A stretch of 64,000 nucleotides of DNA, from NCBI GenBank assembly GCA_030697645.1, contig JAUYPI010000008.1, forward strand, positions 4,301 to 68,300. The letters are read 5' to 3'. How positions within the stretch are numbered: position 1 is the stretch's first letter; each line of letters starts with the position of its first letter. The notes beneath the pieces are model-generated. The model did not search any database. It was not told where the DNA came from and worked only from the letters and a program-made list of their open reading frames with translations. This DNA comes from a bacterium (GTDB taxonomy: Bacteria > Patescibacteriota > Minisyncoccia > Phycocordibacterales > VMGT01). A program made the translations under genes and the position numbers. Shown one piece after another: positions 380-62,148 of the stretch.

Positions 380-802
380 ATGCGACATAAAAAAGCAACG
401 AAAAAACACGCTCGGAGCGTGCGGAGGGCAGAGGCCGCGGGAGTAGGCGCCGGGCTCTCTCTTGCCGCAGCCGCGGCAGGGCTCTACTACCTTGCCGGTA
501 CGCGGCCGGGAAAAAAGGTGCGCCGCACTGTGACGCACATAGCCGAGGATTTGAAACGAGACGTGAGAGGCCGAGTGCGAAAAGTTGGCATCACGACCGA
601 GCGTGCTTATCACCGTCTCGTTGATGAGGCGGCGGGGGCATACGAGCGGGTGAGCGATATAGATACGCGGGAGCTCCGCGCCGCAGCGCGGAAAGTGAAA
701 GGCGAGTGGCGCGCGCTCAGTCGCGACGTCGGCAGCGCGGTGAAAAAGGCACGCCGTGTCGCGAAGCGCGTCGGGGCGAGTCGCAAGGGGGCACGAAGGT
801 AG
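380..802 (+). CDS. hypothetical basic (Lys/Arg-rich) protein with N-terminal hydrophobic segment
   Basis: 140-aa ORF followed by a strong GC hairpin (823-855), consistent with a terminator. No recognisable domain. Confidence 0.4.
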   Translation: MRHKKATKKHARSVRRAEAAGVGAGLSLAAAAAGLYYLAGTRPGKKVRRTVTHIAEDLKRDVRGRVRKVGITTERAYHRLVDEAAGAYERVSDIDTRELRAAARKVKGEWRALSRDVGSAVKKARRVAKRVGASRKGARR

Positions 803-822
803 CACGGATGTACGCGTTTGAT

Positions 823-855
823 CCCCCTCCGACATTCGATGTCGGAGGGGGGGGG
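823..855 (+). terminator. rho-independent terminator-like hairpin (CCCCCTCCGACA-ttcga-TGTCGGAGGGGG)
   Basis: Perfect 12-bp GC-rich stem immediately after the 380-802 ORF. Confidence 0.5.
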
Positions 856-1113
856 ATAACCATGTACTCGTACGGAACGCCCGGCTATTGTTATGGTAGT
901 GCGACGATGCCAGCTTTGGCATCTCGTATCCACAGCATGAGCATGCGTTATGGATATCTTTTCTATAGACAGCAGCATATCTGAATCGTTTCCCGACGAT
1001 CTCAAGGCGCAGCTGTGGGCACTTTGCCTCGATCGGGGAAACATGATTCAATACCTATCGGCGTGAGGTACAGGAACAGCAATGGAAAATCATTCGGGCG
1101 GAAGGAGGTTCCG

Positions 1114-1599
1114 ATGGAGAAGCCTAAAGGCGCAAGCATGTTCTTTATCAACCGAGAGGACAACATCCTGCTCTTTTTACGGGATAAGTATCCTATCGTA
1201 CCCAAGGATAAATATCCGAATATGTGGGACGTGCTCGGCGGGCACGTTGAGGATGAAAGCCCGCTTGAGTGCATCAGGCGCGAGATGCAGGAAGAGCTCG
1301 GGTTGTATATTAGCATGCCGTTGCTGCTCGGTGTTATTGAGTTTCCTGACAGGACGGACCATGTTTTTTGTGAATTCCTGTGGAACGATGATGTGAATCG
1401 ACTAAACAAAAAACTTACAGAGGGTCAGCGTGTCTGTTGGTTTGGCCTTGATGAGATCCGCAAGATGGATCTGGCCTACGGATGGCAACCCCATGTAATC
1501 GCATTTCTTGAACATAAAAAGCGTGTGCGTAGCGCCGATTTTGATCCGTGCTCGCCCGAACAGGCACTCGCCCGCGACCGAGCTTGGGGTTTTAGGTAG
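1114..1599 (+). CDS. NUDIX hydrolase
   Basis: Nudix box GGHVEDESPLECIRREMQEELGL (GX5EX7REUXEEXGU). An AGGAGG Shine-Dalgarno sits 6 nt upstream of the ATG at 1114. Confidence 0.8.
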   Translation: MEKPKGASMFFINREDNILLFLRDKYPIVPKDKYPNMWDVLGGHVEDESPLECIRREMQEELGLYISMPLLLGVIEFPDRTDHVFCEFLWNDDVNRLNKKLTEGQRVCWFGLDEIRKMDLAYGWQPHVIAFLEHKKRVRSADFDPCSPEQALARDRAWGFR

Positions 1600-1849
1600 T
1601 CTTCGATTTACCAACACTCCATACAGTTCTGAACTCTCATGAGAATGGCCCGCAACAGAAGCGCTGTCTCGGCCATCTCTGACGCAGAGCACTCTCAGAT
1701 ACCGCGCACACTTTGCGTGTAAACCCCGATAGTTCGCTGTCGGGGTTTGTCTTTGGTCTACCTTTGATGCATTTTTTAGCATCGACAGGCGGCTGTGTTT
1801 TAGCATCGGCGTAGCATTTACGCATTGTGCTGGCGTTCGATAGCGCGCA

Positions 1850-2030
1850 CCCATTCAAAATTTCATGCCCTAGCGAAAGGCGTTTTTGAAATGGCGAGCC
1901 GAGTAGCAAAATGCAGCTGTCTGAGGCCGAGCCCCGAGGGGGAGGCCGAGTTCTGCATTTTGCGTCAAGCGAGGCGACACCATTTCTAAACGCCGAAGCT
2001 CGAGCATGAAATTTTGAATGGGTAAGCGCC
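1850..2030. repeat. about 180-bp nested imperfect palindrome upstream of mraZ
   Basis: Outer arms ACCCATTCAAAATTTCATGC / GCATGAAATTTTGAATGGGT. Middle arms GCGTTTTTGAAATGGCG / CGACACCATTTCTAAACGCC. Inner arms GCAAAATGCAG / CTGCATTTTGC around a GC core GAGGCCGAGCCCCGAGGGGGAGGCCGAG. Confidence 0.7.
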
Positions 2031-2077
2031 GTTATCCACAGGTTGTCCACTTTTTGTGCACAATGAGGCACTTGCGG

Positions 2078-2127
2078 TGTGGGATGTGGTGGCATACACT
2101 TTCCAATAAGTGGGATACGGTGGGAAG
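2078..2127 (+). promoter_or_regulatory. putative MraZ operator: three in-phase TGGGA direct repeats
   Basis: TGGGA at 2080, 2111 and 2121 (spacings of 31 and 10 bp, in helical phase), directly upstream of mraZ. In E. coli, MraZ binds phased TGGGN repeats. Confidence 0.45.
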
Positions 2128-2144
2128 TAATCCCCACTGGTTGT

Positions 2145-2579
2145 ATGTTAATCGGAGAGTATGTGCACACGCTCGATGCGAAAAAGCGGCTGTCACTGCC
2201 GGCTAAATTCCGCAAAGAGCTCGGCAAGCACGTAGTCGTTACGAACGGGCTCGACGGGTGTTTATTTATCTATCCCCTTGCCGCATGGGAGGTCGTCAGC
2301 AAGAAGTTTGCGGCGCTCTCGATGGGGCAGGCGGATAGGCGCTCTTTGAGCCGCTTCATGCTCGCAGGCGCAGTCGAAGGAGAGATAGATGCGGTCGGGC
2401 GTGTGCTCATCCCCGATTTTCTCAAAGAGTTTGCGAAGTTGAAAAACAAAGTGATTGTCGCCGGCGTCTACGACCGTGTCGAGGTGTGGAACGATAAGCT
2501 TTGGCAGGAGTACAAGCGGCGGGTGGAAAGACAGGCGGATACGCTCGCTGAAAAGTTGGGAGACGTCGGAGCTTTATAG
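2145..2579 (+). CDS. mraZ: transcriptional regulator MraZ
   Basis: MLIGEYVHTLDAKKRLSLPAKFR matches the MraZ N-terminus (D-x-KGR-L-x-P). There are two SpoVT/AbrB-like halves and rsmH follows. Confidence 0.85.
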   Translation: MLIGEYVHTLDAKKRLSLPAKFRKELGKHVVVTNGLDGCLFIYPLAAWEVVSKKFAALSMGQADRRSLSRFMLAGAVEGEIDAVGRVLIPDFLKEFAKLKNKVIVAGVYDRVEVWNDKLWQEYKRRVERQADTLAEKLGDVGAL

Positions 2580-2620
2580 ACGTAAAACCGAGCGTCGAGA
2601 TTTTAATGGAGCATTACAGT

Positions 2621-2752
2621 CAAATTTTCAATTTTCAATGCTCAATTTTCAATAAATTTTCAATGTTTCAATGACGGACGACGTTGGCGTCGTGTTTGAA
2701 AATTGATTCATTGGAAAATTGATTGAAAATTGAAAATTGTGAATTGAAAATT
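2621..2752. repeat. ATTTTCAA-word palindromic element (family A) with ACGACGTTGGCGTCGT core
   Basis: Left arm is tandem (A)ATTTTCAAT units. The centre is GACGGACGACGTTGGCGTCGTGTTTG. The right arm is the reverse complement (ATTGAAAAT units). Confidence 0.8.
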
Positions 2753-2759
2753 GGTACGC

Positions 2760-3647
2760 ATGCACATCCCGGTCTTACTGCACGAAGTTCTCCAGTTCCT
2801 TTCAATTAAAAAAGGCGAGACGGTTCTCGACGCTACCGCGGGCGGCGGCGGGCACACGAGAGCGCTCTCGGATGCAGTCGGCGCGAAGGGAAAAGTCATT
2901 GCGATTGACGCCGACTCGAGCGCGCTCGCGCGGGTGCGCGATGGTCTCCGAGGAGCGGCGTGTCGCGCCGAGTTTATTCACGGAAATTTTCGCGATCTCG
3001 GCGAAATGCTTCAGGGTCGCGGCATCAGTGCGATAGACAAAGCGCTCTTTGACCTCGGTCTCTCGAGCGACCAGCTCGAGTATTCGGGGAGAGGGTTTAG
3101 CTTTGAGCGCGATGAGCCGCTCTTGATGACGTTTGCGGATCGAACGCCCGAGGGTACGCTCACGGCCTACGAGATCGTCAATAGTTGGGGCGAGGGTGAG
3201 CTTGTCGATATCCTGCACGTCTACGGTGAGGAGCGGCGGGCGAGGGGTATTGTGCGGGCAATCGTCGCAGCGCGCAAGATTCGTCCTATTGGAACGACTC
3301 GTGAGCTCGTGCGCGTGATTGAGGGTGTTGCGCCGCCGCGAGAGATGGGGCGCATCCATCCGGCGACGAAAACATTCCAGGCGCTGCGTATAGCGGTCAA
3401 TGATGAGATTGGCGCGCTTGAGGAAGGGCTCGACGCGGCGTTTAAGGCCCTGCGAGCAGGCGGAAGAATGGCGGTCATCTCATTCCACAGCATCGAGGAC
3501 CGAACAGTCAAGCACTACTTTGCTGACCTCGCGCGATCCGGCAGAGTGAACCTTTTAACAAAAAAACCAATCACGCCGACCGAGACGGAAGTCTCCACCA
3601 ACCGCCGTTCACGGAGTGCAAAGATGAGGGCGATCGAGAAAGCGTAA
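2760..3647 (+). CDS. rsmH: 16S rRNA (cytosine1402-N4)-methyltransferase RsmH
   Basis: MHIPVLLHEVL N-terminus and a SAM-binding motif DATAGGGGH. Canonical position after mraZ. Confidence 0.9.
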   Translation: MHIPVLLHEVLQFLSIKKGETVLDATAGGGGHTRALSDAVGAKGKVIAIDADSSALARVRDGLRGAACRAEFIHGNFRDLGEMLQGRGISAIDKALFDLGLSSDQLEYSGRGFSFERDEPLLMTFADRTPEGTLTAYEIVNSWGEGELVDILHVYGEERRARGIVRAIVAARKIRPIGTTRELVRVIEGVAPPREMGRIHPATKTFQALRIAVNDEIGALEEGLDAAFKALRAGGRMAVISFHSIEDRTVKHYFADLARSGRVNLLTKKPITPTETEVSTNRRSRSAKMRAIEKA

Positions 3648-3779: not shown

Positions 3780-4145
3780 ATGTCCCATAGATTAACTAGA
3801 TCAAATCAGTCTCATAGTCGAGTTATCGCACTCGCCTACTCTCGCGCGCTGCCGCTCGGTCTTCTTGTCATACTATGCGGTCTTGCGCTGCTGGCGCTCG
3901 CTTCCTATGGGTACTATTTGAATAAGGCCGTCGAGTATGCGTCGTTGCGCGCATCAAGCGAGGAGGAGCGCTCACGGCTCTCTGCGGTGGTCGCCCATCT
4001 TGAGGCTAAGCGCGCTCTGCTCGTCGCCTCGCTTACCCTCGATCGTGCCCGCGAGCTCGGCCTTCTCGAGGCCGCATATCCGATCTTCCTCACCCGCGGC
4101 GAGGAGAGGACGTTGTCGCTTGCTGCAGGCACTGAAGGATTGTAA
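3780..4145 (+). CDS. FtsL-like cell-division protein (single-TM, coiled-coil)
   Basis: 121 aa with an N-terminal TM helix LGLLVILCGLALLALASYGYYL. It sits between rsmH and ftsI, as in dcw clusters. No significant sequence motif was recognised. Confidence 0.5.
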   Translation: MSHRLTRSNQSHSRVIALAYSRALPLGLLVILCGLALLALASYGYYLNKAVEYASLRASSEEERSRLSAVVAHLEAKRALLVASLTLDRARELGLLEAAYPIFLTRGEERTLSLAAGTEGL

Positions 4146-4152
4146 GCAAATT

Positions 4153-4232
4153 TGAGCTTTTAGCTTATAGCTGTTAGCTTTTAGCACGACGTCGGAGCCT
4201 CTCAAGAGCTAACAGCTATAAGCTAAAAGCTT
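4153..4232. repeat. AGCTTTTAGC/AGCTGTTAGCT-word palindromic element (family C) with CACGACGTCGG core
   Basis: GAGCTTTTAGCTTATAGCTGTTAGCTTTTAGCACGACGTCGGAGCCTCTCAAGAGCTAACAGCTATAAGCTAAAAGCTT. Confidence 0.8.
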
Positions 4233-6598: not shown

Positions 6599-6646
6599 GA
6601 AATTGTCTGGAATCCGTTTTTATCCACATGTCATTAACGAATAGAA

Positions 6647-6682
6647 TTTGCAATAACCATGCGACCGCATTGTTATTGCAAA
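6647..6682. repeat. 36-nt conserved palindrome TTTGCAATAAC-catGCGACCGCat-TGTTATTGCAAA (copy 1 of 3)
   Basis: 11-bp inverted arms around a conserved GCGACCGC loop. Near-identical copies at 35845-35880 and 61963-61998. Confidence 0.8.
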
Positions 6683-6696
6683 TCTCTTAAAACCAC

Positions 6697-14925: not shown

Positions 14926-15030
14926 AAATTTTCAATTATCAATTTACAATTTTCAATCAATTTTCAATGACACAATTTTCAAACACGACGTCGTCGTTTT
15001 GAAAATTAGAAATTGAAAATTGGTAATTGT
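14926..15030. repeat. family A palindromic element with ACACGACGTCGTCGTTTT core
   Basis: TAAATTTTCAATTATCAATTTACAATTTTCAATCAATTTTCAATGACACAATTTTCAAACACGACGTCGTCGTTTTGAAAATTAGAAATTGAAAATTGGTAATTG. Confidence 0.8.
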
Positions 15031-16658: not shown

Positions 16659-16793
16659 AAATTTCCAATTTTCAATTTTGCAATTTTCAATCAATTTTCA
16701 ATGGATCAATGATTCAATGACGGACGCCGTCGCGTTTGAAAATTGCGTCATTGAAAATTCATTGGAAATTGAAAATTGTACATTGAAAATTTT
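16659..16793. repeat. family A palindromic element with GACGGACGCCGTCGCG core
   Basis: AATTTCCAATTTTCAATTTTGCAATTTTCAATCAATTTTCAATGGATCAATGATTCAATGACGGACGCCGTCGCGTTTGAAAATTGCGTCATTGAAAATTCATTGGAAATTGAAAATTGTACATTGAAAATTTT. Confidence 0.8.
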
Positions 16794-18788: not shown

Positions 18789-18917
18789 AAATTTTCAATG
18801 TACAATTTTCAATTTTCAATCAATTTTGCAATGACACAATTTTCAAACACGACGTCGTCCGTCACTCAGTCATTGACACGTTGAAAATTGATTGAAAATT
18901 GCAAAATTGAAAATTTT
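18789..18917. repeat. family A palindromic element with ACACGACGTCGTCCGTCA core
   Basis: AAATTTTCAATGTACAATTTTCAATTTTCAATCAATTTTGCAATGACACAATTTTCAAACACGACGTCGTCCGTCACTCAGTCATTGACACGTTGAAAATTGATTGAAAATTGCAAAATTGAAAATTTTT. Confidence 0.8.
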
Positions 18918-27698: not shown

Positions 27699-27778
27699 AG
27701 CTGTTAGCTGATAGCTTTTAGCTTTTAGCACGACGGCGTAGCCTCTCAAAAGCTATAAGCTAACAGCTAAAAGCTTAA
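27699..27778. repeat. family C palindromic element with CACGACGGCGTAG core, between dnaG and rpoD
   Basis: GAAGCTGTTAGCTGATAGCTTTTAGCTTTTAGCACGACGGCGTAGCCTCTCAAAAGCTATAAGCTAACAGCTAAAAGCTTAACA. Confidence 0.8.
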
Positions 27779-31825: not shown

Positions 31826-31903
31826 ACATTTGACATGTAACCTTTGACATTTGACGTCGCGTCGCCGGTCGTTCGAAGTCAAATGTCAATGGTCAAATGT
31901 TTA
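31826..31903. repeat. CATTTGACA-word palindromic element (family D) with GACGTCGCGTCGCC core
   Basis: CGACATTTGACATGTAACCTTTGACATTTGACGTCGCGTCGCCGGTCGTTCGAAGTCAAATGTCAATGGTCAAATGTT, between rpsU and dsbA. Confidence 0.8.
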
Positions 31904-32235: not shown

Positions 32236-32333
32236 AAGCTTTTAGCTTTTAGCTGATAGCTTTTAGCACGACGACGTAGCTTCTAAAAGCTAACAGCTAA
32301 AAGCTCGTCTGATTAAGTTAACAGCTAAAAGCT
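32236..32333. repeat. family C palindromic element with CACGACGACGTAG core
   Basis: GCTTTTAGCTTTTAGCTGATAGCTTTTAGCACGACGACGTAGCTTCTAAAAGCTAACAGCTAAAAGCTCGTCTGATTAAGTTAACAGCTAAAAGCTG. Confidence 0.8.
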
Positions 32334-35328: not shown

Positions 35329-35736
35329 TCACTTCAGGACGCCGACCTCGTACACGTCGTCGAGCGGGATGTCCGCGCTCTTGTGCGCATCCCGAACCGC
35401 CGCCTCGGATGGCGCTTCCGTGATACAGTACGCAACGCCTTTCTCTTTGCTGTAGTAGACCTTCTTCGCTTTGAGACCACTCTCGTCGCACGCTTTTTTA
35501 TACGTATTCCATGCCTGCTCTAATTGCTCTCTCCCGGCGCTACCTGTCGAGTGGAGCCCCATAAAGAGCGACATCGCGCAGGCACACTTTGCTTCCGCCT
35601 CGCCGCAGCCGGAGCATTTTGGCATACAATGCTCTCCGCCACACTCATGCTCGGCGTCATGCTCCTCGGCCTCCGCACCGCACATGTCGCATTTGTACCC
35701 CTCCGTTTCTTGGGCACATTTTTCACATTTTTGCAT
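35329..35736 (-). CDS. small cysteine-rich putative metal-binding protein
   Basis: The start codon was chosen at an internal Met: MQKCEKCAQETEGYKCDMCGAEAEEHDAEHECGGEHCMPKCSGCGEAEAKCAC, i.e. multiple CxxC pairs, followed by a conserved-looking C-terminal domain. The longer ORF upstream runs through the 36-nt palindrome. Confidence 0.5.
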   Translation of the reverse strand: MQKCEKCAQETEGYKCDMCGAEAEEHDAEHECGGEHCMPKCSGCGEAEAKCACAMSLFMGLHSTGSAGREQLEQAWNTYKKACDESGLKAKKVYYSKEKGVAYCITEAPSEAAVRDAHKSADIPLDDVYEVGVLK

Positions 35737-35844
35737 AGGATTTGAAAATGACCGTCTTCTAATGATCGACCTTGCTATACTTATACCATACTCATTGCCT
35801 CGCGCGTGCCCTCCGTTATAGGTCATAAAAAACAGAAAAAGATA

Positions 35845-35880
35845 TTTGCAATAACTCTGCGACCGCATTGTTATTGCAAA
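35845..35880. repeat. 36-nt conserved palindrome (copy 2): TTTGCAATAAC-tctGCGACCGCat-TGTTATTGCAAA
   Basis: Same arms and loop as copies 1 and 3, flanked by AAAAGATA on the left and TTTTCG on the right. Confidence 0.8.
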
Positions 35881-35973
35881 TTTTCGTTCAGTTCGTTTCT
35901 CGGTGAGTGTGTCGGTTCTCTTTTTGGACAGGCCCGCTTCTCGTTTTTGATATTGGCGTATATACTGCAGCGT

Positions 35974-36855
35974 ATGGACGAGACAAAACAAGGCACCGAC
36001 CGCCTCAAAGAACTTGAGGCTCTGATGCAGGCGAGCGATTTTTGGGCTGACAAGGAGCGAGCGCAGACGCTGATCCGTGAATATCAGGCACTAAAAGATA
36101 CCGCAGCCGGTGTCGGCGTGTATGAGAGCGGCGATGCGATCATGACCATTTTTGCCGGAGCCGGGGGTGACGATGCCGAGGATTTTACGCGTATGCTCTC
36201 GGAAATGTACGGGAAATATATCGTCGCACACGGCTGGAGCACTCGAGAGCTCCACGCGCACTCGAGTGAGTCCGGCGGCTACCGCAATATCACGACGGAG
36301 ATTGCGGGGCGCGGGGCGTATGGGACCCTTAAGCACGAGAGCGGGGTACACCGCCTCGTGCGGATCTCGCCCTTTAATGCGTCAAAGAAACGGCAGACGT
36401 CGTTTGCGCTTGTCGAGGTCGTGCCGAAGTTTGAGAAGGTGGGACCTGTGGATATCGCGGAGAGCGACCTTCGGGTCGAGTTCGCGCGATCAGGGGGCGC
36501 AGGCGGGCAGAATGTGAATAAGCGCGAAACTGCCGTGCGTATCGTGCACCTGCCGACCAATATCGCGGTACATGTGTCCTCCGAGCGCAGCCAGCAGCAG
36601 AACAGGGAGAAGGCACTGGCGCTCCTCCGCGGAAAGCTCTATCATAGGGAAGAGGAGGCGCGACACGCGCGCGAGCGCGGCCTCTCGACTGCCGCGACGA
36701 TCTCTGCCGAATGGGGCAACCAGATCCGCTCATACGTGCTGCACCCGTACCGAATGGTGAAAGACCACCGCACCGGGGTCGAAACAAGCGACATCGAGCG
36801 CGTGCTTGAGCGCGGGGAGATCGATGAGTTCATCGAGGCGGAGAAAAATGTGTAG
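35974..36855 (+). CDS. prfB: peptide chain release factor 2, N-terminally short form
   Basis: GGQ motif (SGGAGGQNVNK), RF2-specific SPF tripeptide (RISPFNASKKRQTSFA), and DFWADKERAQ aligning to E. coli DVWNEPERAQ. No upstream CTT-TGA-C frameshift site is seen, and the in-frame upstream translation is not RF-like. Confidence 0.8.
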   Translation: MDETKQGTDRLKELEALMQASDFWADKERAQTLIREYQALKDTAAGVGVYESGDAIMTIFAGAGGDDAEDFTRMLSEMYGKYIVAHGWSTRELHAHSSESGGYRNITTEIAGRGAYGTLKHESGVHRLVRISPFNASKKRQTSFALVEVVPKFEKVGPVDIAESDLRVEFARSGGAGGQNVNKRETAVRIVHLPTNIAVHVSSERSQQQNREKALALLRGKLYHREEEARHARERGLSTAATISAEWGNQIRSYVLHPYRMVKDHRTGVETSDIERVLERGEIDEFIEAEKNV

Positions 36856-36861
36856 GTGAAT

Positions 36862-37227
36862 ATGAAAAATTTTCTGAAGCCGACGAGGGTGACGTGCTTA
36901 GTAATGACACTGTTCTTCTGTGTAGTTCTTATCGGGCTACTTTTTTCTTCGGGCATTTTGCCGGACATTGGGATGGCGACTACTTTTTTTGTTGGAATTG
37001 CAATCGTCGTATTATTGGTACCGGCCGTGTTGTTCGATCAGGTGGGTATTCCAACATTACATCCCAGCAGTGGGGCTTTTCTTGCACTTCCCAACCCAAC
37101 CGTCCTCGGTTTCGCAGCGAGCATTTTTACAAGCACCGTGATTCTCTATCTGGCCGCAAGTACCGTTTCATTACTTTGGTACAAACTGCGATCGAAATCA
37201 AAACTTCCCGACTCAAAGGCGCGTTGA
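36862..37227 (+). CDS. hypothetical small membrane protein (3 TM)
   Basis: ORF abutting the prfB stop, with hydrophobic helices. GC is lower than neighbours. Confidence 0.45.
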   Translation: MKNFLKPTRVTCLVMTLFFCVVLIGLLFSSGILPDIGMATTFFVGIAIVVLLVPAVLFDQVGIPTLHPSSGAFLALPNPTVLGFAASIFTSTVILYLAASTVSLLWYKLRSKSKLPDSKAR

Positions 37228-37236
37228 ACTACTGAA

Positions 37237-37305
37237 TTGGAAGTGAGTAGTTCGTTGTTGGCAGTTGCGTCAGCATGATTTACTTCGACAAAGTTTCAAA
37301 AATAT
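37237..37305 (+). repeat. direct repeat, copy 1 (duplicated ftsE 5' region)
   Basis: TTGGAAGTGAGTAGTTCGTTGTTGGCAGTTGCGTCAGCATGATTTACTTCGACAAAGTTTCAAAAATAT is about 94 % identical to 38033-38100. It includes the ftsE start codon and its first 10 codons ([10 protein letters not shown]). Confidence 0.85.
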
Positions 37306-37633
37306 GGATCAAAAATCAGTTGATAAAAAAATTAAGACCATTGTGGATACGATCGTCCGTACGTTTAAGCCGGAGAAGGTTATTCTCTTTGGCTCGTACG
37401 CGTGGGGCGTACCGACCGAAGACAGCGATGTTGATCTGCTGGTTGTGGGAGAATCCGCGAAGCCGCGGCGTGAGCGGGAGCGTGATATAGATAGGTCACT
37501 GGTTCCGCGTACGATGCCGCTCGATATTCTCGCGTATACACCGAAGGAACTTCGTGAGAAAATAGACGACGATCGAAATTTATTTCTCGAAGATATCGTC
37601 AGTAATGGCACCGTGCTTTATGCCGATGACTAA
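37304..37633 (+). CDS. minimal nucleotidyltransferase (MNT) antitoxin of a HEPN/MNT toxin-antitoxin pair
   Basis: Pol-beta-type nucleotidyltransferase motif GSYAWGVPTEDSDVDLLV (GS-x9-13-DxD). Overlaps the downstream HEPN gene by 8 nt. Confidence 0.8.
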   Translation: MDQKSVDKKIKTIVDTIVRTFKPEKVILFGSYAWGVPTEDSDVDLLVVGESAKPRRERERDIDRSLVPRTMPLDILAYTPKELREKIDDDRNLFLEDIVSNGTVLYADD

Positions 37634-38009
37634 ATACGTCGTGGATTGGTTTCATCGCGCCGATGAAGATTTACAGATGGTTGATTTGGCGCTGAAAGAG
37701 GACGGTCCCGTCAACCCCGTTTGTTTTCATGCGCAACAAGCCGCAGAGAAATACCTGAAAGGGTTTCTTGCTTTCCACGCCCAGAACGTACGGAAAATAC
37801 ACGATCTCAAGGCGCTGCTCCAGGAGTGTCAAAATGTTGACCCCTCGTTCCGCGAGCTTGATGAAGACACAGCGGTGCTCAACCGATTTTATATGACGTC
37901 TCGATACCCCGACGACACGCCAGAGTTTAGCTCTGCTGAATGCAGAGAGGCATCCGAGGCTGCTGTGCGGATCAAAGAGTTTGTGTTGAAAAAAATGGAT
38001 GACAAGTAG
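37626..38009 (+). CDS. HEPN-domain protein (HepT-like toxin)
   Basis: PF05168-like HEPN pattern (AQQAAEKYLKGFL ... RFYMTSRYPD). Partner of the MNT gene. Confidence 0.8.
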   Translation: MTKYVVDWFHRADEDLQMVDLALKEDGPVNPVCFHAQQAAEKYLKGFLAFHAQNVRKIHDLKALLQECQNVDPSFRELDEDTAVLNRFYMTSRYPDDTPEFSSAECREASEAAVRIKEFVLKKMDDK

Positions 38010-38032
38010 ACGAGGGTCGGAAGTTCGTCATT

Positions 38033-38100
38033 GAAAGTGAGTAATTCGTTGTTGGCAGTTGCGTACGCATGATTTACTTCGACAAAGTTTCAAAAATATA
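38033..38100 (+). repeat. direct repeat, copy 2 (native ftsE 5' region)
   Basis: Matches 37237-37305 and here continues into full-length ftsE. Confidence 0.85.
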
Positions 38101-38752
38101 CAATGGCGGCACGGTGGCGCTCGAGGACGTCACGCTCACGGTGGACTCCAAGGAGTTTGTCTCGATCGTTGGCCACAGCGGGGCCGGGAAGACGACGCTT
38201 CTCAAGATGCTGCTTGCCGAGGACTTTCCGACAGCGGGCGCGGTGTATTTTGAGTCTACGGACATCCACTCGCTTCGCCGGAGAGCGATCAGCCGCCTGC
38301 GGCGGCGCATCGGCATGATTTTTCAGGATTTTCGGCTCCTTCCCGCCCGTACCGCCTATGAGAATGTCGCGTTTGCGATGGAGGCCGCAGGCCGCAGTGA
38401 TGAGGAAATCCAGTCCGACGTGCCGTATGCGCTTGGTCTCGTTGATCTCGAGGAACACATGTGGAACTTCCCCCATGAGCTCTCCGGGGGCGAGAAGCAG
38501 CGCGTGGCGATCGCGCGTGCGATCGTGAACCAGCCGGACATTTTGGTCGCCGACGAGCCGACGGGGAACCTCGATCCGGTCAATACCTATGATATCGTGC
38601 AGATTTTGAAAAAAATCAACGGCCTCGGCACAACCGTGCTGCTCACGACGCACAACACCGGCGTCGTGGAATCCCTCAAACGTCGCGTCATTACGATGGA
38701 GCGCGGCAGGGTGGTCGGAGACGAGGCGCATGGACACTATAATAACCACTGA
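38069..38752 (+). CDS. ftsE: cell-division ABC transporter ATP-binding protein FtsE
   Basis: [14 protein letters not shown], Walker [13 protein letters not shown] signature [14 protein letters not shown], Walker B ILVADEPT. Followed by ftsX. Confidence 0.9.
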
Positions 38753-38803
38753 GCTTTTAGCATGGACGGCGACGGCGAAGCTTCTAAAAGCTAACAGCTC
38801 GCA
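38752..38803. repeat. family C short palindromic element between ftsE and ftsX
   Basis: TGAGCTTTTAGCATGGACGGCGACGGCGAAGCTTCTAAAAGCTAACAGCTCGC. Confidence 0.7.
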
Positions 38804-38806
38804 CTT

Positions 38807-39730
38807 ATGTTGATTTCTCTCAAACGCATCTTCCGCTCCGGCTTTCTTGATTTTTGGCGCAATAGCGTCGTGTCATTCTCGTCCGTTTTCGTGCTTACGG
38901 TGACGCTCTTTGTGATCGGTTGCCTGCTTTTCCTCCAGGCGACGCTTGAGTCTACGCTCCAAGAGCTTCGTGATAAAGTGGACGTGAATGTATATTTTAT
39001 TCCGATTGCGGGAGAGGCAGACATCCTTGGGGTGAAAACCCAGATCGAGGCGCTGCCGGAGGTTGAGCGCGTCGAGTATGTGACGCGCGAGCAGGCACTT
39101 GAGAATTTCCGCATCCGCCACGCGGACGACCAGCTCACTCTCCAGGCGCTCGACGAGCTCGGCGATAATCCCCTCGGCGCCGTGCTGAATGTAAAGGCCC
39201 GCGAGCCCTCGCAGTACGAGAGCGTTGCGCGTTTTCTTGAGTCCTCGCCCGCGCTCTCGAAGGGAGAATCCTCGATCGTAGACAACGTTAATTATTTCCA
39301 GAATAAAATCGCGATCGAGCGCCTCGCGGGCTTCATTGACGTCTCCGAGCGCGTCGGACTCCTTGCGACGATCGCGCTTGCAGCGATTTCCGTCCTCATT
39401 ACATTCAACACGATCCGTCTTGCGATCTACACCTCGCGCGATGAGATAGCGGTGATGAAGCTCGTCGGGGCTTCAAGCGCCTATGTGCGGGGACCGTTTA
39501 TTATCGAGGGTGTGCTCGCAGGCGTCGTCGCGGGAGTGCTTGCGCTCGGGCTCTTTTATCCGCTCACCTACTGGCTCGGGCCGATTACCGAGCAGTTTTT
39601 CGCAAGCATTAATCTATTTATCTACTACCGCGCGCATTTTGCGGAAATATTTTTGATCGTGATGGGATCCGGCATCGCCCTCGGCGCCCTCTCGAGCTTC
39701 CTTGCGACGAAGAGGTATCTCAGGGTTTAG
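38807..39730 (+). CDS. ftsX: cell-division permease FtsX
   Basis: One N-terminal TM, a large periplasmic loop, then three C-terminal TM helices (FtsX/MacB-type permease fold). Confidence 0.85.
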   Translation: MLISLKRIFRSGFLDFWRNSVVSFSSVFVLTVTLFVIGCLLFLQATLESTLQELRDKVDVNVYFIPIAGEADILGVKTQIEALPEVERVEYVTREQALENFRIRHADDQLTLQALDELGDNPLGAVLNVKAREPSQYESVARFLESSPALSKGESSIVDNVNYFQNKIAIERLAGFIDVSERVGLLATIALAAISVLITFNTIRLAIYTSRDEIAVMKLVGASSAYVRGPFIIEGVLAGVVAGVLALGLFYPLTYWLGPITEQFFASINLFIYYRAHFAEIFLIVMGSGIALGALSSFLATKRYLRV

Positions 39731-39882
39731 AAATTCGAAATACGAATATCAAATCCGAGCCGAACATTTGACATGTAACATTTGACATTTGACCGCGTCG
39801 CCTCGTCTGTCAAATGTCAATGGTCAATTGTCACATGTTCTGTTCGTGCTTCGATATTCGGATTTAGGCATATTCGGATTTC
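39731..39882. repeat. family D palindromic element (CATTTGACA words) with CGCGTCGCCTCGTC core, nested in outer arms
   Basis: Outer arms GAAATACGAATATCAAATCCGAG / CTTCGATATTCGGATTTAGGCATATTCGGATTTC. Inner AACATTTGACATGTAACATTTGACATTTGACCGCGTCGCCTCGTCTGTCAAATGTCAATGGTCAATTGTCACATGTT. Confidence 0.8.
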
Positions 39883-39930
39883 GTGACTGATAGGTCATCG
39901 GAAGTTGCACAGACTTTTTACGGCTACATC

Positions 39931-56719: not shown

Positions 56720-56883
56720 GAATTTCCAATTTCCAAATTCACAATTTCCAAATAATTTCCAAAACTTCAAGTTCCAATTTCCAAACACGACGCGGCTACT
56801 CGTAATGGTAGTGGTGTTTGGGATTTAATTTTTTGGAATTTGAGATTTGTTTGGAAATTGGTTACTTGGAAATTGGAAATTTA
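56720..56883. repeat. AATTTCCAA-word palindromic element (family B) with ACACGACGCGGCTACTCG core
   Basis: AATTTCCAATTTCCAAATTCACAATTTCCAAATAATTTCCAAAACTTCAAGTTCCAATTTCCAAACACGACGCGG ... TTTGGAAATTGGTTACTTGGAAATTGGAAATTT. Confidence 0.8.
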
Positions 56884-61906: not shown

Positions 61907-61962
61907 CGTCGTCTGACTGCTTCCTTTTAATGAAACTGATGATGAAACTGAAAAATAAAAGA

Positions 61963-61998
61963 TTTGCAATAACTATGCGATCGCATTATTATTGCAAA
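61963..61998. repeat. 36-nt conserved palindrome (copy 3): TTTGCAATAAC-tatGCGATCGCat-TATTATTGCAAA
   Basis: Same architecture, with a single substitution in the loop (GCGATCGC) and in the right arm. Confidence 0.8.
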
Positions 61999-62148
61999 TT
62001 TTTCAACTCGTTCAGAATAGACCTCTTGCATAACCCCCCCCTCGCGCGAAAATGGTTTGGCTCGCAAAAGGTGGCTAAAATAGACAGAAGTGGTAAATTA
62101 CAATTGGTGCAGTGACCTTTGATAATTGCATAAGACAGGAGAACACAC

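Follow-up and report, generated by a model that had tools for sequence, protein, structure and literature searches.

Toxin-antitoxin pairs rank among the most mobile prokaryotic genes, although most of them lack mobility functions, and their route into chromosomes is largely unexplained. Hotspots between core genes exchange toxin-antitoxin and defence cassettes by flanking homology, as is the case for ccdO157 between folA and apaH in Escherichia coli. Arrays of orphan toxin and immunity genes are found downstream of rhs and cdiA, and partial tRNA-gene repeats flank integrated island arrays. Two-gene modules of a HEPN-domain protein and a minimal nucleotidyltransferase (MNT) have been described (Makarova 2009, PMC2701414; Anantharaman 2013, PMC3710099), as has the type VII HepT/MntA system (PMC7641770; PMC4621449). 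Here, we analyzed a MNT/HEPN gene pair within a 64,000-nt stretch from an uncultured Paceibacteria bacterium of the Patescibacteria (GenBank assembly GCA_030697645.1, contig JAUYPI010000008.1, positions 4,301 to 68,300 of the forward strand), which is referred to as the window and to which all unprefixed coordinates refer. The pair lies directly upstream of the cell division genes ftsE and ftsX and is bracketed by two copies of the ftsE start, and brackets derived from the neighboring target gene were also found around related MNT-HEPN cassettes at other loci (loci and contigs used for comparison have numbers with the prefix L).

The locus resembles the described HEPN/MNT modules in that a small MNT gene with the GSx10DxD motif is followed by an overlapping small HEPN gene, and in the patchy, widespread and mobile-looking distribution of the pair. 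It differs from the type VII HepT/MntA system, as the HEPN protein belongs to PF05168 and not to DUF86/HepT, has RYPDDT in place of Rx4-6H, and is paired with an MNT that stays under the MntA cut-off. Similar to the known hotspots between core genes, the prfB-ftsE gap is occupied by different cassettes depending on the genome (MNT-HEPN, MazEF, GIY-YIG, 23S-rRNA-IVP, reverse transcriptase). However, at this locus a long duplication of the target's own start brackets the cassette, and the same applies to related cassettes at unrelated sites. At one of these, L084, cassettes occur in succession and are separated by target-gene fragments, as in the rhs, cdiA and tRNA-flanked arrays; here, however, the fragment is the 5' end of the downstream housekeeping gene, and neither a polymorphic toxin nor a tyrosine recombinase is involved. 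Promoterless small cassettes, often toxin-antitoxin pairs, in one orientation and with a repeated separator are likewise features of integron arrays, but here the cassettes are separated by copies of the local target gene instead of attC palindromes, and intI was not encountered in the loci that were read. Finally, transformation-induced merodiploidy and homology-facilitated illegitimate recombination similarly leave duplicated recipient sequence by one-sided homology (PMC3784515; PMC3240628). Experimental descriptions concern duplications of kilobases to 900 kb or insertions with deletions; these processes are not known as a routine route of entry for small toxin-antitoxin cassettes, nor are they known from Patescibacteria. 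We found no account in the literature of target-gene-end duplications around toxin-antitoxin cassettes, an absence that is no proof of novelty.

A duplicated ftsE start brackets the MNT/HEPN gene pair

The cassette and its junctions comprise the following features:

37236..37305, plus strand: repeat copy 1, a vestigial ftsE leader (-39 to -1) with ATG 37275 and 10 codons (repeat search)
37275..37490, plus strand: out-of-frame open reading frame (ORF) of 71 codons from the vestigial ftsE' ATG across the MNT start (MNT is in the -1 frame relative to it)
37304..37633, plus strand: MNT, minimal nucleotidyltransferase, putative antitoxin, with the GSx10DxD motif (GSYAWGVPTEDSDVD) (PF01909 NTP_transf_2, 9.6e-12; PF18765 Polbeta, 2.8e-10)
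37620..38009, plus strand: HEPN-domain protein of the HEPN-T family, putative toxin (PF05168, 7.5e-27, 94 bits versus a cut-off of 22)
38009..38017, plus strand: 9-mer GACGAGGGT at the right junction of the cassette, an exact match to hyp123 codons 7-10 (36882-36890) (3 matches in the window versus 0.44 expected)
38017..38068, plus strand: native ftsE leader of 52 nt, orthologous to L086 3949-4000, which holds the non-coding part of copy 2 (blastn to L086/L087)
38030..38099, plus strand: repeat copy 2, functional ftsE leader with start codon and first 10 codons (repeat search; homologs align from residue 1)

The two copies form a direct repeat of 70 nt with a start-to-start spacing of 794 nt, each consisting of 39 nt of ftsE leader, the ATG and 10 codons. 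They are identical at 66 of 70 positions (94%); all four mismatches fall into the 39 nt upstream of the ATG, while the start codon and the 10 codons are the same. Within the window, the repeat represents one family with two copies, present at these two places only (21-mer matches; none expected from 100 shuffles). From left to right, the stop codon of hyp123 (37227), a small gene upstream of the cassette, is followed by 8 nt, copy 1, MNT, HEPN, 20 nt, copy 2, ftsE and ftsX. Copy 1 ends with AAAATAT, and its last two bases are used by the ATG of MNT (37304). An earlier note on this DNA had claimed a duplicated ftsE start, in which the upstream copy stops after 10 codons and runs into the MNT ATG and the downstream copy is the real start of ftsE, with an overlapping pair of a GSx10DxD-type MNT and a HEPN protein in between. 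The sequence and the domain matches bear this out, with the length corrected from 68 to 70 nt and the coordinates given for the second copy (38033-38100) off by 1-3 nt. The contig JAXMIX010000188.1 at NCBI (GCA_034376905.1, L001) has no mismatch to the window across both junctions, and a Logan contig of SRR26726066 (L002) is identical to the window across the junction from HEPN through copy 2 to ftsE; the three agreeing assemblies probably all originate from the same sample.

Comparison with L086 and L087, two related loci that lack the cassette, further defined the junctions. On the ftsE side, homology to these loci begins at 38017, 13 nt to the left of copy 2 (blastn), and copy 2 is therefore embedded in a longer native leader. 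These 13 nt, TCGGAAGTTCGTC, precede the repeat unit at copy 2 and in the L086 leader, whereas copy 1 abuts the hyp123 stop region instead. Copy 1 and the L086 ftsE leader are identical at 65 of 68 positions. Thus, the sole novel joint is the one between ftsE position +31 and the MNT ATG, with 2-4 nt (AT/ATAT) of possible microhomology. Relative to L086, copy 2 carries two derived G-to-A changes, and copy 1 a derived CA/AC swap. Two further states, at leader position 10 and at codon 10 (ATA), are common to both copies and not present in L086, indicating that both copies stem from one genome or from two very close strains.

The arrangement does not correspond to that left by a transposon. The 724 nt between the copies encode MNT and HEPN only, the neighbors are hyp123 and ftsE, and no transposase or integrase gene is present. 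A repeat search identified no terminal inverted repeats at the ends of the insert, and no integrase domain occurred among the called genes of the MNT-HEPN loci, a few kb of which were visible per locus. The repeat is neither short nor of fixed length (70 nt here, 40-170 nt elsewhere), and the insert is not flush with copy 2. A staggered cut would have placed the 13 nt to the left of copy 1, which argues against a simple target-site duplication. A target-site duplication of the transposase type was therefore ruled out by the missing recombinase, the missing inverted repeats and the 13 nt of native leader in front of copy 2.

Close relatives lack the cassette

FtsE-based scans yielded about 160 loci from Paceibacteria/Parcubacteria (Patescibacteria, also Candidate Phyla Radiation, CPR), 128 of which contained both prfB and ftsE. 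In nearly all loci, prfB, ftsE, ftsX and pyrG follow each other in one direction, with a median prfB-ftsE gap of 65 bp (128 loci). The four closest relatives found represent three genus-level lineages whose ftsE is 84-87% identical to that of the window at the nucleotide level; at the amino acid level, FtsE is 95% (L086/L087), 97% (L183) and 96% (L181/L182) identical. MNT-HEPN is absent from all four. In L183, a hyp gene (122 aa) is followed by 17 nt and a GTG-initiated ftsE, and in L181/L182 the 3' end of hyp is followed by 31-35 nt and also a GTG-initiated ftsE, so that hyp directly upstream of ftsE represents the ground plan of the genus. The prfB-ftsE gap of L086/L087 carries a C-terminal PemK/MazF remnant (Pfam, 2.9e-6) inside a 47-nt duplication of the hyp 5' end, copy B of which sits 29 nt upstream of the leader in L086; the features of this gap span L086 3287-4000 (L086, Ga0114945_10001017; L087, Ga0114944_1001150; closest relative in JGI).

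Apart from the window's own genome (L001), MNT-HEPN occurs in the prfB-ftsE gap of a single, distant relative (L083; 128 loci), and a search of 80 genome and 80 metagenome ftsE loci revealed a duplicated ftsE 5' end in this population only. By this comparison of sequences, the MNT-HEPN cassette is a lineage-specific gain. The earlier note had proposed a recent insertion with target duplication. The empty-site alleles that it suggested looking for exist in L183 and L181/L182, with L086/L087 likewise devoid of MNT-HEPN, and the case it named as refuting, the same arrangement in all relatives, was not seen, as the four closest lack the cassette. Lineage-specific gain and duplication are thus retained from this proposal, while a classic target-site duplication is not.

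The locus looks mosaic. Its left part, with full-length hyp beside an ftsE start, resembles L183/L181, and its right part, consisting of a relic of the hyp 5' end, the leader and ftsE, resembles L086. The GACGAGGGT 9-mer after the HEPN stop is possibly such a relic of a hyp 5' fragment, similar to the one in front of the L086 leader. No single-step history could be reconstructed for the locus.

With regard to the ftsE start itself, the window (38017-38068) and L086 (3949-4000) share an ATG with the 52-nt leader, and a GTG with an unrelated spacer of 17-35 nt is found in L183 (424-440) and L181 (44-74)/L182; the first 60 coding bases are more than 90% identical in all of them. Directly after prfB, L086 also carries a perfect 18-nt inverted repeat with a 91-nt loop.

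The gap between prfB and ftsE is a recurrent landing site

The prfB-ftsE gap exceeds 200 bp in 30 of the 128 loci. L060, L099 and L108 each carry an intact MazE/MazF pair there. The gap of L037 holds a GIY-YIG gene, that of L123 encodes a 23S-rRNA-IVP protein, and that of L139 a reverse transcriptase of 287 aa for which a weak YafQ-like match was found; weak PaaX/Cas2-like matches were obtained for the gap of L140. L083 has the order prfB-MNT-HEPN-ftsE without a duplication, and its HEPN stop overlaps the ftsE ATG. The L083 MNT is the closest homolog of the MNT in the window (70% amino acid identity; search of 5.8 billion proteins), and the L083 HEPN protein is 52% identical. GC content at third codon positions (GC3) is 40-45% in the L083 cassette versus 69-77% in its neighbors. 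Since the nearest relative of the cassette resides in the same gap, the prfB-ftsE gap is a recurrent landing site for small cassettes and not a chance target. A 199-aa ORF in the gap of L048 resembles other gap cassettes by eye only.

Target-derived repeats flank related MNT-HEPN cassettes

The contexts of six further homologs were analyzed, in which MNT is 56-64% identical to that of the window; all were informative except for the short contig L166. The 420 nt upstream of each cassette were compared with the 420 nt downstream, using 1500 geometry-matched pairs of windows as controls. In six of seven distinct MNT-HEPN loci, the flanks matched each other beyond the 99.8th percentile of the controls, the exception being L083, for which only 101 nt of upstream sequence exist. 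The bracketing repeats measure 40-170 nt and are locus-specific pieces of the adjacent gene, and in the window, L084, L167, L168, L169 and L175 one copy is continuous with the complete gene. Elsewhere in 1.17 Mb of related loci, repeats of this kind are rare, apart from tRNA paralogs. Target-derived brackets at six of seven related loci, together with the array described below and the prfB-ftsE hotspot, form a wider pattern, which is the main new result of this analysis.

The target gene differs between the loci. In L084/L085, codons 1-13 of the transketolase-N gene (MPHLHDDKIKFLE) are present four times and separate three cassettes between rpe and tkt. The four copies range from one that overlaps the rpe stop to the true tkt start. 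Cassettes 1 and 2 encode DUF5678 with a membrane protein, and MNT-HEPN, respectively, and cassette 3 encodes a membrane protein fused to the duplicated codons and a weak RelB/ParE-like pair. A 29-codon ORF that starts in tkt copy 2 stops 5 nt before the MNT ATG. In L167, about 140 nt of the 5' end of transketolase-C are duplicated upstream of MNT, and in L169-L174 a 47-nt piece of a histidine-kinase 3' end is duplicated. Parts (3') of a type IV secretion system (T4SS) pilin gene lie on both sides of the cassette in L168 (36 and 40 nt) and in L175-L177 (122 nt, 93%). As a side observation, the L084 array (Logan SRR22387938_8219, 743-3454; repeat of about 39 nt) has an integron-like layout with the start of a housekeeping gene as separator.

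No conserved sequence was found at the cassette termini across the loci. The 3' boundary is tight, at -10 to +19 nt around the HEPN stop, and the 5' boundary varies between 0 and -292 nt. Cassettes that are nearest to each other have the same target gene, i.e., ftsE for the window and L083 and the pilin gene for L168 and L175. The latter two come from different genomes but have an identical HEPN/pilin junction; their MNT proteins are 66% and their HEPN proteins 83% identical, and the repeats within each genome are 93-100% identical. In both, the duplicated pilin sequence includes the stop codon of HEPN (L168:2625-2694, L175:3691-3812). Past the duplicated pilin segment, a poly-G tract differs by one base between two samples (L175 versus L176, 2700-2735), as a result of which the pilin-like ORF upstream measures 213 instead of 300 aa; this may reflect phase variation.

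Proposed insertion by host recombination and alternative explanations

We consider a recombinase-free, homology-driven insertion that leaves behind a duplicated gene end to be the best explanation of the locus, although it could about as easily turn out wrong as right. A horizontally acquired two-gene MNT/HEPN module would have entered between hyp and ftsE in the conserved cluster. Host recombination, and not a transposase or cassette integrase, would have acted on DNA that carried the cassette and a piece of the target gene, the likely donor being a relative with the cassette already located upstream of ftsE. On one side, homologous recombination would have taken place in the ftsE leader and 5' coding region; at the other end, an illegitimate join would have placed ftsE codon 10/11 (+31) straight onto the MNT ATG, with 2-4 nt of microhomology at most. 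Possible routes are Campbell-type integration of a circularized fragment, recombination with one-sided homology, and inter-chromatid integration after DNA uptake, and each of the three would duplicate the homologous segment. The target segment would then be present twice, with copy 2 starting the working ftsE and copy 1 remaining as a dead stub. In gene-dense genomes, only insertions that regenerate intact flanking genes would survive selection, and duplicated brackets would therefore be commonly seen. A bracket of this kind could subsequently serve as a pair of portable homology arms by which the cassette reaches the corresponding gene of related genomes.

Host recombination is favored because the repeats are specific to each locus, long and variable in length and are accompanied by neither an enzyme nor a terminal motif. 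The empty sites of the relatives, the foreign composition (GC3) of the cassettes in the window and in L083, and the 47-nt hyp duplication around the PemK/MazF remnant of L086/L087 also speak for it. An arrangement of the donor type exists in L083, where MNT-HEPN adjoins ftsE without a duplication, although that cassette is only 70% (MNT) and 52% (HEPN) identical to the one in the window. Transfer by homology arms also fits the shared junction and the fresh repeats in L168/L175, a pattern that would be expected if cassette and arms moved together and were renewed by recombination. Patescibacteria have been reported to keep homologous-recombination genes as well as comEC and pili for DNA uptake (PMC12455944). 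Transformation produces duplications via alternative pairing and inter-chromatid integration (PMC3784515), and one-ended homology with an illegitimate join is an established route (PMC3240628).

Several points weigh against this interpretation. No near-identical donor cassette was found, the best MNT match being 70% identical, so that we infer the donor-recipient scenario. A duplication within the genome followed by three to four substitutions would fit the states shared by both copies equally well. The leader is confined to the window and L086, i.e., the lineages with a cassette or cassette remnant, and is absent from L181-L183, so that its designation as native is not fully settled. The MazEF pairs in the same gap (L060, L099 and L108) have no flanking repeats. 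In addition, the pattern is based on seven distinct MNT-HEPN loci, and the support from RecA and DNA uptake concerns Patescibacteria in general.

The strongest competitor, which we nevertheless regard as unlikely, is a rearrangement in situ. According to this scenario, the cassette was already located between hyp and the leader, and the 70-nt piece was later copied upstream of MNT by template switching or gene conversion; copy 1 may have been retained as a source of translation signals for a promoterless antitoxin gene. The lineage-specific states that both copies share to the exclusion of L086, and the identity of the 31 coding nt, fit this scenario. The MNT ATG, which overlaps the repeat and has no upstream region of its own, also fits, as does the ORF from the tkt copy in L084, whose end 5 nt before the MNT ATG is a spacing typical of translational coupling. 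However, the ORF that begins at the vestigial ATG differs in frame from MNT and extends 62 codons into it, which should hinder MNT initiation. This scenario also needs two separate events, an insertion and then a copy, and leaves the target-derived repeats at six unrelated sites, including 3' ends of upstream genes, unexplained.

A true target-site duplication produced by machinery acting in trans appears still less probable. The strands would be cut 40-170 nt apart, in a retrotransposition-like or casposase-like manner, and the cassettes would be non-autonomous passengers. Flanking target duplications are indeed the rule for this cassette family, their variable length is as in target-primed processes, the 3' boundary of the cassette is tight compared to the variable 5' boundary, and a reverse transcriptase gene is present in the prfB-ftsE gap of L139. 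In contrast, the cassettes have no conserved termini and no candidate enzyme adjoins any locus, a simple staggered cut does not yield the 13 nt of native leader in front of copy 2, and the junction shared by L168 and L175 implies that the unit was inherited or transferred and not repeatedly inserted de novo.

We judge it improbable to a yet higher degree that the arrangement is ancient and vertically inherited, was lost from most relatives and had its repeat copies kept similar by gene conversion or selection. The closest cassette homolog also resides between prfB and ftsE, and the MNT divergence (70%) is similar to the divergence of FtsE from that of the same genome, L083 (73-78%). However, all four genus-level relatives are without the cassette, and L083 alone has it among about 160 further ftsE loci. 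The HEPN protein is 52% identical to that of L083 versus 52-53% to those of cassettes at other sites, the junctions in the window and in L083 differ, and GC3 is unameliorated in both. An assembly artefact, i.e., a chimeric join or a collapsed repeat, is very unlikely, since, although the matching contigs apparently represent one sample and were compared at the level of assemblies, the three assemblies are identical at the junctions, the copies differ at four positions, and the ORFs are uninterrupted, including the 14-nt overlap of MNT and HEPN that other members of the family share.

Returning to homology-driven insertion, the MNT-HEPN loci provide a concrete and testable signature, consisting of long target-end duplications around cassettes, recurrence at the same conserved genes and one stacked array. 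If this signature is general, host recombination, probably fed by DNA uptake, would be indicated as the vehicle in streamlined CPR genomes, and it would explain how cassettes become lodged in essential operons such as prfB-ftsEX without breaking them. As a tentative extension, which is rather doubtful at present, toxin-antitoxin and other selfish cassettes of Patescibacteria might generally spread without a recombinase of their own by carrying the end of the adjoining conserved gene. DNA uptake and host recombination would insert them at the same gene elsewhere and thereby duplicate the gene end, repeated rounds would build integron-like arrays as in L084, and the duplicated starts would double as launch pads for translation.

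Properties of the MNT and HEPN genes

The MNT and HEPN genes overlap by 14 nt with MNT upstream, and the same overlap is present in L083, L084, L168 and L169. The GSYAWGVPTEDSDVD motif is invariant across 16 MNT homologs. In total, 300 MNT homologs were obtained, mostly from Patescibacteria, the best non-self match being the 70% one; no identical MNT or HEPN protein is on record outside this population. Against the MntA equivalog model NF047752 (NCBIfam), MNT reached 28.1 bits, which is below the cut-off of 60. The sole Pfam match of the HEPN protein is PF05168, with no match in NCBIfam, and it does not belong to the DUF86-family HepT proteins with Rx4HxY. Its nearest PDB entry is 1UFB (TT1696; E = 1.3e-7). 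The canonical histidine of the Rx4-6H motif is replaced, with SRYPDDT in the window, RYPADT in L083 and RYPGDF in L084, and TT1696 has RYPDAH. A D in place of the H has been noted for several HEPN-T members (Anantharaman 2013, PMC3710099), and an alternative HEPN active site is possible. The assignment of the earlier note to a classic type II/VII module was therefore too strong, given an HEPN-T protein without the canonical histidine and an MNT that fails the MntA model. Family membership is what suggests a putative toxin-antitoxin activity of the pair. We know of no HEPN protein of this PF05168/HEPN-T subgroup that has been assayed for toxicity.

GC3 amounts to 51% for MNT and 57% for HEPN versus 70-75% for prfB, ftsE, ftsX and pyrG, placing both genes at or under the 5th percentile of the long ORFs in the window. 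GC3 of hyp123 is 48% and that of the L183 hyp homolog 40%. Low GC as a sign of foreign origin was rejected for hyp123, as the resident L183 homolog is lower still, and because a resident gene such as hyp is also low, low GC alone does not prove a foreign origin. A scan of viral contigs with the MNT alignment gave two weak partial matches only and was uninformative.

The 71-codon ORF that starts at the vestigial ATG is probably not a gene, but it may disturb the initiation of MNT. Through the CA/AC swap (37256-37275 in copy 1 versus 38050-38069 in copy 2), a weak stem in copy 1 becomes a hairpin of 7 bp with its end at the vestigial ATG. This hairpin was flagged by the terminator scan in copy 1 only, and copy 2 and L086 share the unswapped state; it could perhaps damp the interference with MNT initiation to some degree. 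A structured leader RNA, in which GGAAGUGAG pairs with the start region, was considered and dropped as a main explanation, as only a weak z score of -2.7 was obtained for copy 1 alone and the value was not significant with flanks. The leader had no match to an Rfam family. Entry into MNT by a -1 frameshift out of the frame of the vestigial ftsE' was also rejected, since no canonical slippery heptamer is present.

Neighboring genes and transcriptional context

The genes around the cassette are as follows:

35974..36855, plus strand: prfB (release factor 2), upstream anchor of prfB-ftsE-ftsX-pyrG (Pfam PCRF and RF-1; L001 gene call; synteny in about 150 Paceibacteria loci)
36862..37227, plus strand: hyp123, small predicted membrane protein, genus-specific and usually located directly 5' of ftsE (homolog in L183)
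38069..38752, plus strand: ftsE (NCBIfam equivalog TIGR02673, 270.7 bits versus a cut-off of 264.85; Pfam ABC_tran)
38807..39730, plus strand: ftsX (Pfam FtsX_ECD and FtsX)

prfB, hyp, MNT, HEPN, ftsE, ftsX and pyrG form a co-directional run. In a scan for promoters and intrinsic terminators (35700-39900), no sigma-70-like promoter was identified between hyp and ftsE, and terminator-like matches were not clearly above those in shuffled sequences. Given the common orientation and the lack of a promoter-like site, MNT-HEPN is probably co-transcribed with prfB-ftsEX. The location of the cassette under or next to an ftsEX promoter, as proposed in the earlier note, is thus unsupported; the cassette is placed inside the co-directional run.

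The prfB product is short (293 aa; 297 aa in L086), and its PCRF match spans profile positions 97-194 only. hyp123 had no match in Pfam or NCBIfam. It is 32% identical to the 122-aa L183 homolog, with which it shares the N-terminus MKNFLKPT and the C-terminus YKLKSKS, and the hyp 3' end is also found upstream of ftsE in L181 and L182. The first 38 nt or so of hyp (36859-36896) are 86-97% identical to both L086 copies (3426-3463 and 3875-3918), and the start is visibly conserved in L183 (55-90), too; with the remainder of the protein at about 32% identity, the start is far better kept than the body.

Other repeats in the window

Families of long intergenic hairpins occur throughout the window, with arms that consist of short degenerate repeats (AGCTnTTAGCT..., AATTTTCAAT..., ACATTTGACAT...). 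They are located at 4155-4232, 27699-27776, 32237-32314 and 38752-38799, and further ones at 2622-2706, 14926-15010, 16660-16775, 18789-18859 and 56721-56797, as well as at 31826-31901 and 39764-39839. The ftsE/ftsX and ftsX/pyrG intergenic regions each contain one hairpin, and a matching half-arm is present upstream of ftsE in L181. In addition, a palindrome of the form TTTGCAATAAC-N-GCGAnCGC-N-GTTATTGCAAAT was identified in three copies (6638-6686, 35836-35884 and 61954-62002), the middle one upstream of prfB, which may represent a shared operator or terminator.

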